Assembly: GCA_964499975.1 (NCBI GenBank)
Contig: CAZCOV010000083.1
Coordinates: forward strand, 1 to 19,045
Reading direction: 5' to 3'
Length of the DNA stretch: 19,045 nt
DNA from: an uncultured Thermoanaerobaculia bacterium
GTDB lineage: Bacteria > Acidobacteriota > Thermoanaerobaculia > Multivoradales > J023
Position numbers: made by a program. Below are positions 1 through 12,000 of this stretch, piece after piece. The first letter of the stretch is position 1. The number at the start of each line of letters is the position of its first letter.

Positions 1-3000
1 GCGCACACCTCGGTGGCACCGTAGCGGAGCTCAAGGGCGACACCGACGACACCGACACCGACCTAGCCAACCTAGCCAGGGTCAGGTCACCCTGCGGACT
101 AAGATGTGGTAGAGTTGCGGTATGGAGCGAAGCGCAGAAGCCGTGCTGAAGGAAGCACTCACTCTCCCTGAGGCAGACCGGGCGGACATCGCCGGAGCGC
201 TCTTGGAGAGCCTCCAGCCTGCGGAAGAGGCGGACGTCGAGACGGTGTGGCGCCAGGAGGTTGCCACCCGCGTAGCAGCACTCGACGCCGGGGAGGTGGA
301 GACCATTCCCTGGGCCGAGGTCCGCGACCGGCTCTTCGCGAGGCTGCGTGAGCAGCGGACAGGTTGAGTACTTCCCGGAGGCGCGCCTGGAGTTGGAGGG
401 CGCGTTTGAGTGGTACCTGGAGCAAAGCTTGCAGGCGGCGGATGCGTTCCTGCGCGAGGTCGACCGAGCCGTCGCTCTCATCGCGACTGAACCCAGGGTC
501 TGGCCTCGTTTCGAGGCTGGGACGCATCGCTACATCCTCCAGAAGTTTCCGTACAATATCATCTATCGCGAGACAGCCAGCGGCATCGAGGTTGTCGCCG
601 TCGCACACCACAAGCGACGACCCCGGTACTGGCACCGTCGCCTACGCCGCTGAATCGGGTAGCCGGGGGGGTCTAGCCCCCACCAGCCCACACACCAGCT
701 GGCATGCAGGTCTGCACCAGGCGGTTCACGACAGCGGAGCACACAATCCCTTCAGGAATACCCATGAGCGCGCAGCCACAGCGCACGCGCGGAGATCAAG
801 CCCTGGCGGGTCAGCCAGGCGGCAGCAGAGAAGCGCTGGGCGCCGGTATCGCAGAGCCGATCGGGGCGATGTGATATGGCACCGTAGTAGCGGAGCGCGA
901 GGGCTTGTTGGCCCACCTACCCCGGCTCGCGCAGGGTGCGGGTGTCGATCTTGCGCAAGGCCACGAGGAGGTCTTTCAGCTGATCGAGCCCCTTAAGGGT
1001 ACGGTCGAGCAGGTCGCTGATGTCGCGGTTCGGGACGTCGTCGCTGCTGCGCAGACGGCGGCCGATTCTCTGGACGAGGGGGAGCAGGGTCTCGCTCACC
1101 TCGGTGGTCATCTCGCTCAAGAGGTCGTAAACCCCGGAGCTCAGGGTCTGGACCACTGCGACGCTCTTGGGCGCGGCGGCCAGGACTTCGAGGCTCTGGG
1201 CGAGTTTGTCGAGATGGGGGCCGAGCGCTTCCGCGGACGGCACCCCACTCGGTAGCACCGGTGGGGCGGCTGGCACCGGAAGCTGCTGGGGTAACTCGCT
1301 CAGGCGGGTGAAGATGGCTTGGAGGTGGGTGCTGAGCTGCTTGACCTGGGCGAGCAGCGCGCGCAGGACGCGATCGTCGGGTGCTGGCACGGGCGCGGCC
1401 GGCACAGGCGCGGCCGGCACAGGCGCGGCCGGCACAGGCGCGGCCGGCATAGGCGCGGACGAAGACGCGCTGTCGCGGGCAGCGAGCAGGGACTGCAGGC
1501 TTTGCTGCAGTTCGCGCAGGTGGGGCGTGAGCACTTCTCCGAGATCCGCGGACGACGAGGCGCTCGCGCGTTCGAGGGTGCGGCCGATCGTGTGGAGGTG
1601 GTCCGACATCAAGCCGAGTTGCCCGATCAGGCGCACTGTGGGGTCTTCGTCGACGCCGCCCACGGCCTGGACGCGGACAAAGCTACGCTGGATCGCTTCC
1701 CAGCGCGCTCGCTGCTCCGGCGTCAAACAGTCGCGCAAGGCCGCTAGCTTGAGCAGGTTGTGCTCGGCCCCGCCGCGCAGGGTCTGGGCTTCGCTGGTGT
1801 AGTGGTCATCGATCAAGGCCGTAAGCTCGGCATCGCTCATCACCGGGACGATCTTCTCCGCCAGCTTGCTCATGTTGCGGTAGCTGCCCTGCAGTTTGAA
1901 GGGCGGCTCGGTGCGGTAGGCGTCTTCTTGCGCGGCAGAGAGGATGTACTGGCGATTGACCGCGAGCAGCACTTGTTGCACCCGCAACAGCTTGCGCAAG
2001 ACCGCGAGGATTTCGCCTTGCTCTAAACGGGAGAGCGGGTGGCTCAGCTGGTCGAGCGGCACGTCTTCGCCTTGGGCCCGGCGCACCAGGAGCCGAAAGT
2101 CCGCAGGATCCCGGCTGGCAAGCGGCGCCAGCAAAGGATTCGCGGTGAGGCTATTTTCCAGGTAGGAGAGCGCGAACAAGTCTTCCTTGCCGGTCAAAAC
2201 GTCGCCCAGGTTGTAGGTGTCCGCGCGGTTCGCGAGCATGTCGGGGAGCTCGAATTTGGCGCCGGATTCGGTGTAGGGATTGCCCGCCATCGCGATCGCG
2301 AAGCGCTTGCCGCGCAGATCGTAGGTGCGGGTCCGCCCGCGCCACACCCCCTCGATCCGGCGCTGGGCGTCGGCGAGGGAAATGAATTTCTGCAATAGCT
2401 CGGCATGGGTGTGCTGGATGTCGTCGAGGTAGAGCAAGACGTTGTTGCCCAGCTCCAAAGCGAAGTTGATCCGCTCGACCTCTTGCCGCGCGGTCGCGTT
2501 GGGCGCTTCGGCTGGGTCGAGCGAGGTCACGCCATGGCCCAGGGCCGGACCATTGACCTTTACAAAGACCATGCCGAGACGGCTCGCGAGGTACTCCATG
2601 AGGGTGGTCTTGCCGTAACCCGGCGGAGAAATCAGCAGCAGGAGTCCCATCTGGTCGGTCCGCCGGGATTCGCCCAACGCCCCCAGCTGTTTGGCCAGAT
2701 GGTTGCCGAGGAGCGGCAGGTAGACCTGGTCGATCAGTTGGTTGCGCACGAAAGCGCTCATCACTTTGGGCTGGTATTCGTTGAGGCGCAGCTCCGCGCG
2801 CTTTTGCGCGAGCAGCTTTTGCCGGAGCTCTTGCCAGCGGCGAAAGGCGGGCACGCGGTCGCGGCTGAAGTGGGCCAGCCGAGCCAGGAACTCGTCGAGT
2901 TGCAGGGCCAAGGAGCGCTGAATGAGACGCGGGTGCTGACCCAAAAGTCCAGCGACCTCGGCGCTGAGCGGCACCTCCACGGTGGTGCGCTCCAAGCGTC

Positions 3001-9000: not shown

Positions 9001-12000
9001 ACCAGCAGGATTCCCAAGCCCACCCCCAAGCCGAGGAGCCAGCCGGACACGCTGATGCCGCGGGTGCGCCAGAAGACGGTACCAGCGAACGAGACAAACC
9101 AGCTGAGCACGATCAGCAAGCTGAGCGACAGGGTCAGCGGAACCCCGCTCAAGCCGAGCGAGGCGAGCAGGCCATGGCCGTGCCCCTCGCCGTCGTCGCC
9201 GTCGTCGCCGCCGTCAGCGTCCGGGGCATCCACCTCGACCCCTTCAGCACTACCGGCACCGTCCAGGATCTCGAGATCCATAGCGCCGACCAAAACCGTC
9301 AGCCAGTAGAGCAGCACCGGGATCAGCAACAAGCTGAAAATCACGGTGGGGAAGGCCAGAGCTGCACTGAAGAACTCGACCATGATTTCCTCATTTCTCG
9401 CTGCTTTATTCCCTGGCTGCCCCGGACTGTGCGCCCGAGCTAGGTCCTGGTTGCGTCAGCGTGGGTACCGCGCAAGTCTACCTGATAATTCACCCATTGC
9501 GTCCGCGCTCACCACCTCCAGGAGGAGGAACTACTTGACCGTCAAGTAGCTCATCTTTCCGCCTGCCAGGCGCACCACCTTGCCCATTCGCTCCTGCTGG
9601 GTCTTAAACCCTTCCTGTCTGAACAAGGTGCGCAGGCCTTGCGGGATTTCGGCAATCCGGGAGTCCGGCAAACTGAAGCAAGCCACACAGTACCGAGGAT
9701 CCGCTGGGATTTTCCGCCAGAAATCCCAAACGTTGATCGTCACGAAGGTCGGATGGCTAAGTCGTCTCAGCAGCCCGGGAATGGCGTCGTCCTTGATGAC
9801 GGACCCCGGTCGCAGGTCGATGATGAATTCGACACGACCACGATACCAGCGGGCGATTTCGCGCTCAATTCCGCGGCCCAGCAACTGTTCATCGAGGACG
9901 ATCACGAAGCGCGTTGGAGGTCTGGCAGGGACTTGATGAAGCGCTGAGTCACCAGGTGGATCGCTTCAATGATGGCGCTTCGCGAGACCCTGCCGCGATA
10001 GCCGGCCACCAACTCGTCGAGGGTTTCGCCAGCCGCTAGCCGCTCCAGGGTACCGGCGATTTCGATGCGCGTGTACTTGAAGGTAGGGCGCCCCCCGCAG
10101 ACACCAACCGCCCGCACGATGTGCTCACCTAGGGGATAGTAGCGGTAGGGCTCCCCCTGGATGTTTTCGGTGACCACTTGACTCATCAGCCGCTCCTCTG
10201 CCAAGTTCATGATACACCACGCGTCGCCGCGGAGCCATCCCGACCACCGCAGCAGCAACCGCAGCACCGACAAGTTCGCCCAAGCCGGGGATTACCATCA
10301 AAGAATGTCCTCATAGCCTTCGTTCAGGTGCCCTTGGTGTCTTTCGTCGGCATACTGCAGTTGCGCCGCTTCCGATGGGTGCAGGGTCCCGCGGTGGTCC
10401 CAGCGACGGGGCAGCCCCAGTTCTTGGTCGATCTGGTTGGACGACGTCTTGCCCCCTTCGATCGTGTGGTACTCCTCGTAGTCGTGCCACTCTTCCACCG
10501 GATCTGGATGGCCAGGACGGGGACTCTGGGGCAGATAAGCGGGTGACACCGTACTCCGTCCCGTACCTTTCTGGTGATGTTTGGCATGAATCAACTCATG
10601 CGCCAGGACCGAATATGTGGGGAGCGTGTAGCCTTGGTTTTTCTTGGTGTAACCCGTCGTGGCCGAATCCTCGAAGTGCGGAGGGATCGTGATCTCCACA
10701 TCCGAACCACCTCCCTCATTGGCAACATAGGTGTGTTCGCCGCTCCGCGGTCGACGACGCTTGCCGTAATATTGCAAATTGCGCGCTTCAATCTCTTGCA
10801 AGTTGGCACTGTGAGGATCGAGCGGACGGGCTCCGGCGTTGTCTTGACCTTCATGGGGTCTGATGGTGATCGGGTGGTCGGATCCTTGGGTCTTGCGCAG
10901 CAGGCTGCGGGCGGTGGCGCTGGGCATCATGCGCGCGAAATCGGTCATGATCTGGTTGCGGAAGCCGGGGCCGTGATGACCAGCATCGATTTGGATGTTG
11001 CTGTCCGCGCTGTTGAGCTCAGTCCACAACCGACCGACTTCGGCCTGGTCGCGACGGGAGAGGCCGGGAACTTGCAACGCCCCGCCTTCGTTCTGCAGTT
11101 GGCCGATTTGTTGTTGGAAATGCCCCTGCAGCTGGTTCATTCGGCCCTTCATCGCCGGAGACAGCTCTTGCCCAAAGCCTTCGCTCTCCTTGATGTGGCG
11201 GTTCATCCGCCGTTGTAAATCATAAAGAGTATTGAGGTTTTGCTGCGTGCCCTGCTCGCCGGCAGCGTCAGCGAAGCGGTCCAGGTCCCCGGTGATCCAC
11301 TCGGGCTTGTCGGAATAGCTCAGCCCCGTCTTGCCACCCACCCAGCGAGCAGCCCGGTGGAAACCATGCTTGGCTGCTCCGGCTTTGTCCCCCAGCCATT
11401 GCCCGGCAGCAGTCGCCTTGTTCCCCAACCACTGTTTGGCAGCTCCCAGCTGGTTGAGCATGCGGGCCCCTCTGCCGGGTTGCGGTACAGGCTGCGGATC
11501 CTCGATCTCCAAATGGCGGCGAAAAGGGTTGACGCCGGGAAGCATCCCCACATCTTCCACATCTTCCATCTGTCCCAACTCGACCTCGTCATGATCCTCA
11601 TCCACCGCGCTCAGCGGACTGTAAGCCCTCGGTGGCTGCTGCTGCTGACCACCCCCCACTCGCTGCTTGAGCTTCTCCCACCACTCCCAAGTCGCTTGAA
11701 TCGGTGGCGCGCTCGGGGTTCTTGGCAGACTCGGCACGGGGATGGACGCTAGCCGAACGGACGCTAACGGAGCCGGTGGAGCCGTCGGACCGAGCGCTGC
11801 GGCCAGGGATTCAGAGTCTCTGGGATCTCGGGGTTCCGCCGTCCGCGCAACGGCTGGGTCCGGGTCGGCCATGCCTGGCCCCCACTTCGGTGTGCTGGCC
11901 CCCACCTGCTGCGCCAGCTGTCGCGCCATGGGGCTGGCTTCATGCCGCGGCGAAAGTTGAACCCGACCGCGCAATGCCTGAATCAGCGGAGACGGCTGGT

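Follow-up and report, generated by a model that had tools for sequence, protein, structure and literature searches.

Organization of the operon

The window analyzed here, a stretch of 19,045 nucleotides from an uncultured Thermoanaerobaculia bacterium (contig CAZCOV010000083.1), carries on its minus strand a three-gene operon encoding a YqiJ-like membrane protein (gene 1), a flotillin (gene 2) and a giant AAA+ protein of the DUF3686 family (gene 3). Three minus-strand open reading frames (ORFs), of 248, 694 and 1889 residues, were all found where a first-pass annotation of this DNA had placed them (Table 1), and the ATGA in which the flotillin stop overlaps the start of the giant gene is seen at 6586-6583. 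Both of the flotillin starts proposed in that annotation can be read from the sequence. The first, an ATG at position 8667 with a GGGAG 8 nt upstream, gives a 31-nt overlap with gene 1, and the second, an ATG at position 8640, shares an ATGA with the gene 1 stop. Since flotillin homologues possess 20-43 residues ahead of a conserved YRKV(E/D)QG motif, both starts are plausible, and under either of them the three genes abut without intergenic space. The promoter of the operon presumably sits in the 147-nt intergenic region. A promoter scan of positions 1-10400 returned no sigma-70-type match, and a terminator scan returned terminator-like matches at chance level.

Table 1. Features of the window, with residue ranges of the encoded proteins where a feature is a protein region.
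Feature	Position	Strand	Evidence
Gene 1, YqiJ-like membrane protein, 248 residues	8637-9383	-	ORF
Gene 2, flotillin of YqiK/FloT type, 694 residues	6583-8667	-	ORF
Gene 3, DUF3686-family AAA+ protein, 1889 residues	917-6586	-	ORF
ATGA start/stop overlap, flotillin gene/gene 3	6583-6586	-	Read from sequence
Gene 1/flotillin gene overlap	8637-8667	-	Read from sequence
147-nt intergenic region 5' of gene 1	9384-9530	-	Sequence
Gene 3, beta-propeller, residues 65-426 (core of DUF3686), preceded by a long helix, residues 29-59	5309-6394	-	AlphaFold2, Foldseek
Gene 3, post-propeller helical region, residues 432-719, including DUF7902, residues 612-695	4430-5293	-	DSSP, PF25472
Gene 3, middle region, residues 720-1309	2660-4429	-	Conserved motifs
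Gene 3, AAA+ module, residues 1310-1660	1607-2659	-	Motifs
Gene 3, (PAAPV)n linker, 15-nt tandem repeat, 4.9 copies, 96% matches	1386-1458	-	Tandem Repeats Finder
Gene 3, C-terminal helical tail, residues 1761-1889	920-1306	-	Conservation
Unstab_antitox (PF09720, E 6e-14)	122-367	+	Pfam
ParE toxin (PF05016, E 9e-9)	348-653	+	Pfam
124-residue ORF, partner and downstream of the DUF433 gene	9531-9905	-	4-nt overlap with DUF433 gene
DUF433 protein (E 3.5e-8)	9902-10273	-	Pfam
M91/XopG-like peptidase, 669 residues	10298-12307	-	Pfam, NCBIfam
DEAD-box helicase	12334-14076	+	Housekeeping
Class A penicillin-binding protein (PBP), transglycosylase and transpeptidase domains	14173-16737	-	Housekeeping
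ABC-F ATPase	16712-18745	+	Housekeeping

Conservation of the three-gene unit

A genome scan, with one genome per species, identified at least 534 loci encoding relatives of gene 3, the best 80 of which, belonging to Myxococcota, Actinomycetota, Thermoanaerobaculia and unclassified metagenome-assembled genomes (MAGs), were used for synteny counts. In 77 of these 80 loci, the gene immediately upstream of the ATPase gene, in the same orientation, encodes a flotillin, and two of the three exceptions have less than 100 nt of upstream DNA. The YqiJ-like gene is found in 73 of the 80 (five of the seven misses fall at contig ends, and the locus L061 is without the flotillin gene too), and it precedes the flotillin gene in 73 of the 74 loci with enough DNA, L055 being the single miss. 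The trio also occurs in six plasmid records, from Pseudomonas fluorescens (pQBR103), Hymenobacter, Vibrio, Streptomyces and Deinococcus, in five distant homologues whose propellers share 34-37% identity, and in the two closest relatives of the window locus, bringing the sample to ~93 loci in all. Its spread covers Acidobacteriota-like MAGs, Myxococcota, Actinomycetota, Deinococcota, Bacteroidota and Gammaproteobacteria. Apart from the trio, the 80 loci have no conserved neighbour in common: clustering of the flanking ORFs, a naive method made noisy by the long antisense ORFs of high-GC genomes, brought out lineage-restricted neighbours alone.

The spacing of the genes varies. In ~21 of 83 related loci, the start of the ATPase gene overlaps the flotillin stop by 4 nt; elsewhere, gaps of 1-221 nt separate the two genes, with the start codons picked heuristically. 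A chance adjacency of the three genes is rejected, as the synteny recurs family-wide: homologues of the giant protein are consistently encoded beside SPFH and NfeD-like genes in several phyla, and the ATGA-type coupling recurs in part of the related loci. The tightly coupled three-gene operon of the first-pass annotation is thus borne out by both overlaps and synteny, and we consider it confirmed as a genuine and strongly conserved operon.

The YqiJ-like protein and the flotillin

The gene 1 protein contains three hydrophobic segments, with a first transmembrane region (residues 1-40), an acidic Gly/Asp-rich linker, a second and third transmembrane region (residues 72-144) and a beta-rich, presumably OB-like C-terminal domain (residues ~158-222). 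Its full-length sequence returned nothing in Pfam or NCBIfam. The C-terminal fragment alone reports a hit with YqiJ_OB (PF07290; E 0.008, 16.6 bits) that lies under the cut-off of 25.4, and none of 29 orthologues matches the YqiJ_OB or NfeD Pfam models at E <= 0.01. In contrast to these Pfam failures, hhalign analysis of the 29-sequence gene 1 profile aligns it with E. coli YqiJ (84% probability, E 7.5e-6, 129 columns) over the second and third transmembrane regions and the C-terminal domain, and the Hymenobacter orthologue is named a DUF1449 (YqiJ) family protein by NCBI. For these reasons the predicted protein is labelled here YqiJ-like and not a proven NfeD; of the NfeD/YqiJ identity first given to it, a remote homology with YqiJ is plausible, whereas the gathering scores of the NfeD and YqiJ_OB models are not reached.

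The flotillin comprises an N-terminal transmembrane segment or hairpin (residues ~10-36, within its one hydrophobic segment, residues 4-39), an SPFH/Band-7 domain (residues 38-181), a long Glu/Ala/Lys-rich coiled coil (residues ~215-570) and a C-terminal region (residues 571-694). The full-length query gave no match in Pfam or NCBIfam, probably because of the biased composition of the coiled coil; when the N-terminal 250 residues were searched alone, Band_7 (PF01145) was returned (E 2.9e-10, 40.9 bits for a cut-off of 23.6). BLASTP analysis reports E. coli YqiK (E 7e-36, 28% identity over 454 residues), the alignment covering the SPFH domain and ~250 residues of the coiled coil. AT skew is strongly negative (-0.33 to -0.48) between window positions 6500 and 8000, the region of the flotillin coiled coil, because the minus-strand coding sequence is rich in Glu, Ala and Lys codons.

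The flotillin gene, and probably gene 1 as well, has its homologue in E. coli yqiJ-yqiK and B. subtilis yuaF-floT, where the order of the two genes is the same; in each case the flotillin is anchored in the membrane at its N terminus and continues into an SPFH domain and a long coiled coil. However, the E. coli operon stops after yqiK and possesses no ATPase gene, and the window flotillin is ~140 residues longer and has a C-terminal extension. Indeed, 90 flotillins linked to DUF3686 genes have a median length of 690 residues as compared with 553 for YqiK. Part of the additional sequence is in the coiled coil (residues 481-545), and the rest makes up a C-terminal extension of moderate conservation (residues 600-694), which could serve as a docking site in these partner flotillins.

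The DUF3686 protein, a giant AAA+ ATPase

Pfam analysis of gene 3 reports DUF3686 (PF12458) over the complete profile (E 2.6e-208, 692.4 bits for a cut-off of 25; profile positions 1-448 out of 448 at residues 43-492) and DUF7902 (PF25472; E 3.3e-20), together with weak AAA and AAA_5 matches at residues 1316-1440. Nothing credible was found in Pfam at E <= 5 for residues 701-1300 and the C-terminal tail. The family is large, with at least 5415 clusters at 90% identity related to gene 3 (E <= 1e-5), and a search with the propeller only, among 1.84 billion representatives, gave 730 clusters at 50% identity. Full-length members comprise 1590-2036 residues and exhibit the same Pfam set (DUF3686, DUF7902 and a C-terminal AAA+) in a uniform domain order. 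An exact-sequence look-up of the window's protein gave no second contig. When PDB sequences were searched with each protein by itself or with the family profile, the matches were confined to the Walker-A region and to designed helical bundles.

The title of PF12458 ('ATPase involved in DNA repair') and the NCBI product names would have gene 3 act on DNA, its co-transcription with membrane genes being fortuitous. RuvB is among the Foldseek matches (E ~6e-7), and a divergent LexA-family regulator lies upstream at the Hymenobacter plasmid locus. We nevertheless found no basis for the database label 'DNA repair ATPase', and a role in DNA repair, which we judge very improbable, is rejected.

The AlphaFold2 model of residues 1-720 has a mean predicted local distance difference test score of 84. 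Residues 65-426 are all-beta in this model, and DSSP assigns helices in residues 450-719. Foldseek reports PDB matches of the beta domain with WD40-type and six-bladed propellers (IFT-A, Elp1, paraoxonase and the clathrin terminal domain). This propeller, with 66-75% identity across homologues, is the second most conserved part of the protein, the first being the AAA+ module (80-84% identity). The latter exhibits a Walker A motif (GYGKTT, residues 1323-1328), a Walker B motif (LYLDD, residues 1385-1389), a pre-sensor-1 beta-hairpin (residues 1409-1433), the sensor-1 residue N1436, a candidate arginine finger (R1454) and, in the helical lid, a candidate sensor-2 arginine (R1570). Across the 44 sequences over which conservation was judged, both Walker motifs, N1436, R1454 and R1570 show little or no variation. 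No hydrophobic segment is present in the gene 3 protein, its two partners being membrane proteins, and its sequence predicts a cytoplasmic and catalytically intact ATPase.

The closest fold to that of the AAA+ module is NorQ/CbbQ, which are MoxR remodelling chaperones, and assignment to the classical clade (Vps4/FtsH-like) is rejected. The module belongs to the MoxR-like clade, and the motifs, the pre-sensor-1 hairpin and the nearest fold agree with the very large AAA+ protein of MoxR structural type seen by the first reading of the sequence. MoxR proteins such as those of the NorQ-NorD, CbbQ-CbbO and RavA-ViaA pairs comprise ~250-500 residues and have a VWA-domain protein as their partner. 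In the gene 3 protein, in contrast, a propeller and a further ~900 residues, helical or without assignment, precede the module, and the trio has no linked VWA gene; one relative alone carries a VWA_CoxE gene, at a distance of 7 kb. Therefore, given the 1,889 residues and the missing VWA linkage, gene 3 has a MoxR-like fold and is not a canonical MoxR system.

Between the helical region and the AAA+ module, the middle region returned no relative when PDB was searched with the family profile. It contains three motifs with nearly invariant columns, GxHRFSVNT (residues 875-883), HLTGTDFY (residues 910-917) and ERFDEGYERGVHDHD (residues 989-1003), and for the last of these the family consensus is R-Y-D-E-G-Y-E-R-G-x-H-D-x-D. 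This His/Asp/Glu-rich motif could form a metal or catalytic site. Downstream of the module, the (PAAPV)n linker joins the AAA+ lid to the C-terminal helical tail. It varies in length and sequence and is the least conserved segment (6% identity and 57% gaps among homologues for residues 1701-1750), while the moderately conserved tail shares 21-42% identity across homologues, the family profile matching nothing but designed helical bundles there.

Relation to PspA and envelope-stress operons

The first-pass annotation took this operon for a candidate undescribed system. This does not hold, as Ravi et al. 2024 (mSystems 9:e00847-23, PMC11237479; bioRxiv 2020) already gave the gene order YqiJ/YuaF, Band-7/flotillin and beta-propeller+coiled-coil+AAA+, the architecture, and the occurrence of the trio both with CesT/Tir-PspA and as a widespread three-gene 'abbreviated' operon. 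The same authors describe a partner protein with three transmembrane segments, prototyped by YqiJ/YuaF, and their supplementary table lists for Dokdonia the order CesT_Tir, YqiJ-YuaF, Band-7+coiled-coil+flotillin and Betapropeller+Coiled-coil+AAA-ATPase. A 2025 review lists the roles of the Band-7 partners of PspA as undetermined (PMC7619361). On the Hymenobacter plasmid (L082), the order is Tir chaperone, PspA/IM30, DUF1449, flotillin and 'DNA repair ATPase', and on pQBR103 (L081) the genes for YjfI, PspA, rhomboid, DUF2491, DUF350, DUF1190 and glutathionylspermidine synthase precede the trio, annotated as a YqiJ-like gene, SPFH and 'DNA repair ATPase'. Since DUF3686 genes stand inside these CesT- or YjfI-PspA operons, the DUF3686 proteins belong to the family of Ravi et al.

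Hidden Markov models (HMMs) of PspA and CesT, built from three and two sequences, respectively, and limited in sensitivity such that a divergent PspA could escape, found neither protein in the window nor within 8 kb in the 80 loci; they reported L081 and L082 only, both of which had been used to build them. The window is therefore assigned to the 'abbreviated' form, which its gene order and architecture fit. The study of Ravi et al. relies on computation alone and presents the trio as accessory to PspA systems, without naming DUF3686 or assigning the AAA+ clade, here MoxR-like. With PspA in cis in 2 of ~93 loci as against a near-invariant flotillin and YqiJ-like gene, we regard the trio as the probable core unit and PspA as a likely lineage-specific addition, which would refine the published framing.

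The same counts bear on the idea that the ATPase is a bacterial analogue of Vps4 acting on PspA/ESCRT-III polymers, to which flotillin and the YqiJ-like protein would merely recruit PspA. The trio does lie inside CesT/Tir-PspA or YjfI-PspA operons in Hymenobacter, pQBR103 and Dokdonia; a passage of one report has the B. subtilis flotillin-like YdjI bring PspA to the membrane (PMC8581546); and a Vps4-like ATPase is seemingly absent from bacteria according to the 2025 review (PMC7619361). Vps4 with ESCRT-III, and PspF with PspA, likewise couple an ATPase to a self-assembling membrane scaffold. However, PspA accompanies so few of the loci and flotillin nearly all, both Vps4 and PspF belong to other AAA+ clades (the classical one in the case of Vps4), and gene 3 contains neither an MIT-like nor a sigma-54 activator domain. 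We regard a PspA-directed motor as unlikely.

Further genes of this kind accompany the trio in some lineages. One of the closest relatives of the window locus (L095, 14557-19096, minus strand) has an adjoining polyamine module made up of Spermine_synth, DUF350, two DUF4178 and AdoMet_dc genes. Together with the set of pQBR103 from PspA to glutathionylspermidine synthase (L081, 661-5110, plus strand), it corresponds to the second type of PspA-linked operon described by Ravi et al. 2024. In two distant loci unrelated to each other (L088/L089, 13502-14608, and L091, 15176-16303, both on the minus strand), a TelA gene (PF05816) follows downstream of the trio at no more than 3 kb, and a rhomboid protease gene stands just upstream of it at L090 (4192-4857, plus strand), as on pQBR103. 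TelA and rhomboid may be further envelope-stress partners. The recurrence of PspA, CesT/YjfI, polyamine, rhomboid and TelA neighbours indicates envelope stress, the interpretation to which Ravi et al. 2024 came on their own. At L082, a LexA-family regulator (helix-turn-helix and S24 peptidase; 2580-3365, minus strand) is divergent from the Tir-PspA-YqiJ-flotillin-ATPase operon, and the Dokdonia neighbourhood in the table of Ravi et al. likewise lists a divergent 'cHTH+Protease', which suggests that in Bacteroidota the operon is under the control of a conserved repressor that cleaves itself.

Flanking genes and the defence question

The first-pass annotation placed the operon between two toxin-antitoxin loci and a metallopeptidase gene. 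The first locus is a type II toxin-antitoxin pair of an Unstab_antitox and a ParE gene, which overlap by 20 nt; minus-strand ORFs over this pair (82-306 and 159-635) return no family match and are probably spurious. On the other side, the DUF433 gene and its 124-residue partner look like a toxin-antitoxin pair in layout, although the partner has no Pfam, NCBIfam or PADLOC match. The 669-residue protein possesses a Pro/Ala/Ser-rich N-terminal half and a C-terminal Peptidase_M91 domain (E 5e-9) with a HELIHAKHH motif; a match with the XopG/HopH/AvrPtoH type III effector subfamily (E 9e-10) lies far under the cut-off. From its sequence it appears to be an effector-like zinc protease, in a probably environmental Acidobacteriota-type genome. 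The ParE pair, the DUF433 gene and the M91-like peptidase of the proposed bracket are thus present, and the second toxin-antitoxin locus is a candidate by its layout and its DUF433 member. Farther downstream of the peptidase gene are the three housekeeping genes of Table 1. The divergent PBP and ABC-F ORFs share 26 nt at their 5' ends, so that at least one of the two starts is probably located further downstream.

These surroundings had suggested a defence or accessory island, and with it an anti-phage or abortive-infection system composed of a membrane-anchored sensor and an effector. Apart from the flanks, copies of the trio are carried by megaplasmids, HipA and RNA-repair-like genes lie near one distant locus, and large NTPases with propeller sensors are frequent in conflict systems. 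Other results argue against this assignment. PADLOC-DB v2 analysis of gene 3 returned weak P-loop and coiled-coil matches no better than noise (LmuB, 1.7e-4; mad8, 5.9e-4; IetA, 3.5e-3) and none for genes 1 and 2, the phage collection contained no homologue of the trio, and Pfam analysis of its proteins recognized no effector domain of the nuclease, protease, TIR, Sir2 or pore-forming kind. The toxin-antitoxin and peptidase neighbours recur in no related locus, the closest relatives included, and no defence gene recurs among the ~93 loci, as judged by eye. The trio is chromosomal across whole genera of Myxococcota and Actinomycetota, and its uniform domain order is unlike that of diversifying conflict sensors. 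The island reading is not sustained, and a defence function is distinctly unlikely; of the sensor/effector idea, the part concerning membrane remodelling or repair is better supported than phage defence.

A proposed ATP-driven remodeller at the flotillin scaffold

We propose that the gene 3 protein is an ATP-driven remodeller acting at a flotillin/YqiJ membrane scaffold during envelope stress, a reading to which we give an even chance. By analogy with solved SPFH and SPFH/NfeD cages, which form such scaffolds, the products of genes 1 and 2 probably form an oligomeric assembly anchored in the membrane, in which the YqiJ-like protein, with its three transmembrane segments and OB-like domain, and the flotillin would make an SPFH-type scaffold at the cytoplasmic face of the inner membrane. 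The soluble 1,889-residue protein would oligomerize through its MoxR-like AAA+ module, its propeller and helical arm would reach the scaffold or the clients held in it, and the energy of ATP hydrolysis would be used to remodel the assembly, whether to put it together, open it or take it apart, or to extract client proteins. This three-gene module would belong to the phage-shock-protein (PSP)/polyamine envelope-stress network, residing within CesT/Tir-PspA operons in Bacteroidota and some Proteobacteria and standing alone, in the 'abbreviated' form, in the window, Myxococcota and Actinomycetota. We infer in this scheme the physical interaction of the three proteins, their oligomeric state, the substrate and the physiological trigger.

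A pairing of this type has a precedent in HflK/C-FtsH, an SPFH cage that encloses an AAA+ protease at the inner membrane. FtsH is, however, membrane-anchored and of the classical clade, whereas the gene 3 protein is soluble, MoxR-like, devoid of a protease domain and encoded in the flotillin operon itself. In Foldseek analysis, the propeller and helical arm align loosely with clathrin and IFT-A type proteins. A narrower version, which is possible and put forward tentatively, would make the DUF3686 protein a dedicated ATP-driven remodeller of flotillin/YqiJ cages, with flotillin and not PspA as its obligate partner, and hence a motorized coat-like adaptor for membrane microdomains.

Several observations weigh against the proposed remodeller. 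At L061 (7248-12794, plus strand), and at no other locus with ample upstream DNA, the ATPase gene has no adjacent flotillin or YqiJ-like gene; a sensor kinase gene and a divergent gene for a secreted Cys-rich protein lie upstream of it there. The Walker B motif ends in DD as compared with the usual DE, the operon includes no VWA partner although MoxR ATPases normally act with one, and the conserved 590-residue middle region may carry an unrecognized activity. As the HMMs reported no PspA at the 80 loci, the PSP link rests on a minority of lineages. Finally, the literature searched, including that on flotillin with anti-phage and on Myxococcus flotillin with AAA, held no experimental work on any family member and no paper naming DUF3686 or PF12458.

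The nearest structures leave room for a different substrate. NorQ and CbbQ remodel client enzymes, beta-propellers typically serve as platforms for binding clients or peptides, and the S. aureus flotillin/NfeD proteins are reported, in a passage of one study, to stabilize unfolded proteins (PMC11222466). The ATPase could accordingly be a client-directed chaperone that matures, extracts or loads cofactors into membrane clients concentrated by flotillin, the cage itself not being the substrate. Yet the operon is devoid of a conserved client gene or VWA adaptor, no other neighbour is kept across the 80 loci, and the strict 1:1 linkage is to flotillin and YqiJ, which leaves this chaperone role doubtful.

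Significance

The window operon is of a known and widespread kind, of which it is an ordinary example, and its existence would not surprise specialists of PSP comparative genomics. Nor is the idea new, because comparative genomics flagged the operon in 2020 and 2024. What is added here is the DUF3686 identity of the family, its MoxR-like clade, evidence for the trio rather than PspA as the conserved core, and evidence against a defence island. The family is large (the 730 clusters at 50% identity span at least six phyla), architecturally uniform and systematically mislabelled 'DNA repair ATPase'.

The role of bacterial flotillins is still debated, and we know of no characterized ATP-consuming partner of these proteins. 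Should the narrower version of the proposed remodeller be correct, bacterial flotillins would have in the DUF3686 protein their first partner that consumes energy, a functional counterpart of what Vps4 is for ESCRT-III. The biology of such an ATP-driven partner is testable, Myxococcus, Streptomyces, Proteus, Vibrio and the plasmid pQBR103 being usable hosts, and the near-invariant coupling of the trio offers a tractable handle on flotillin function and on the assembly and disassembly of SPFH scaffolds under envelope stress.

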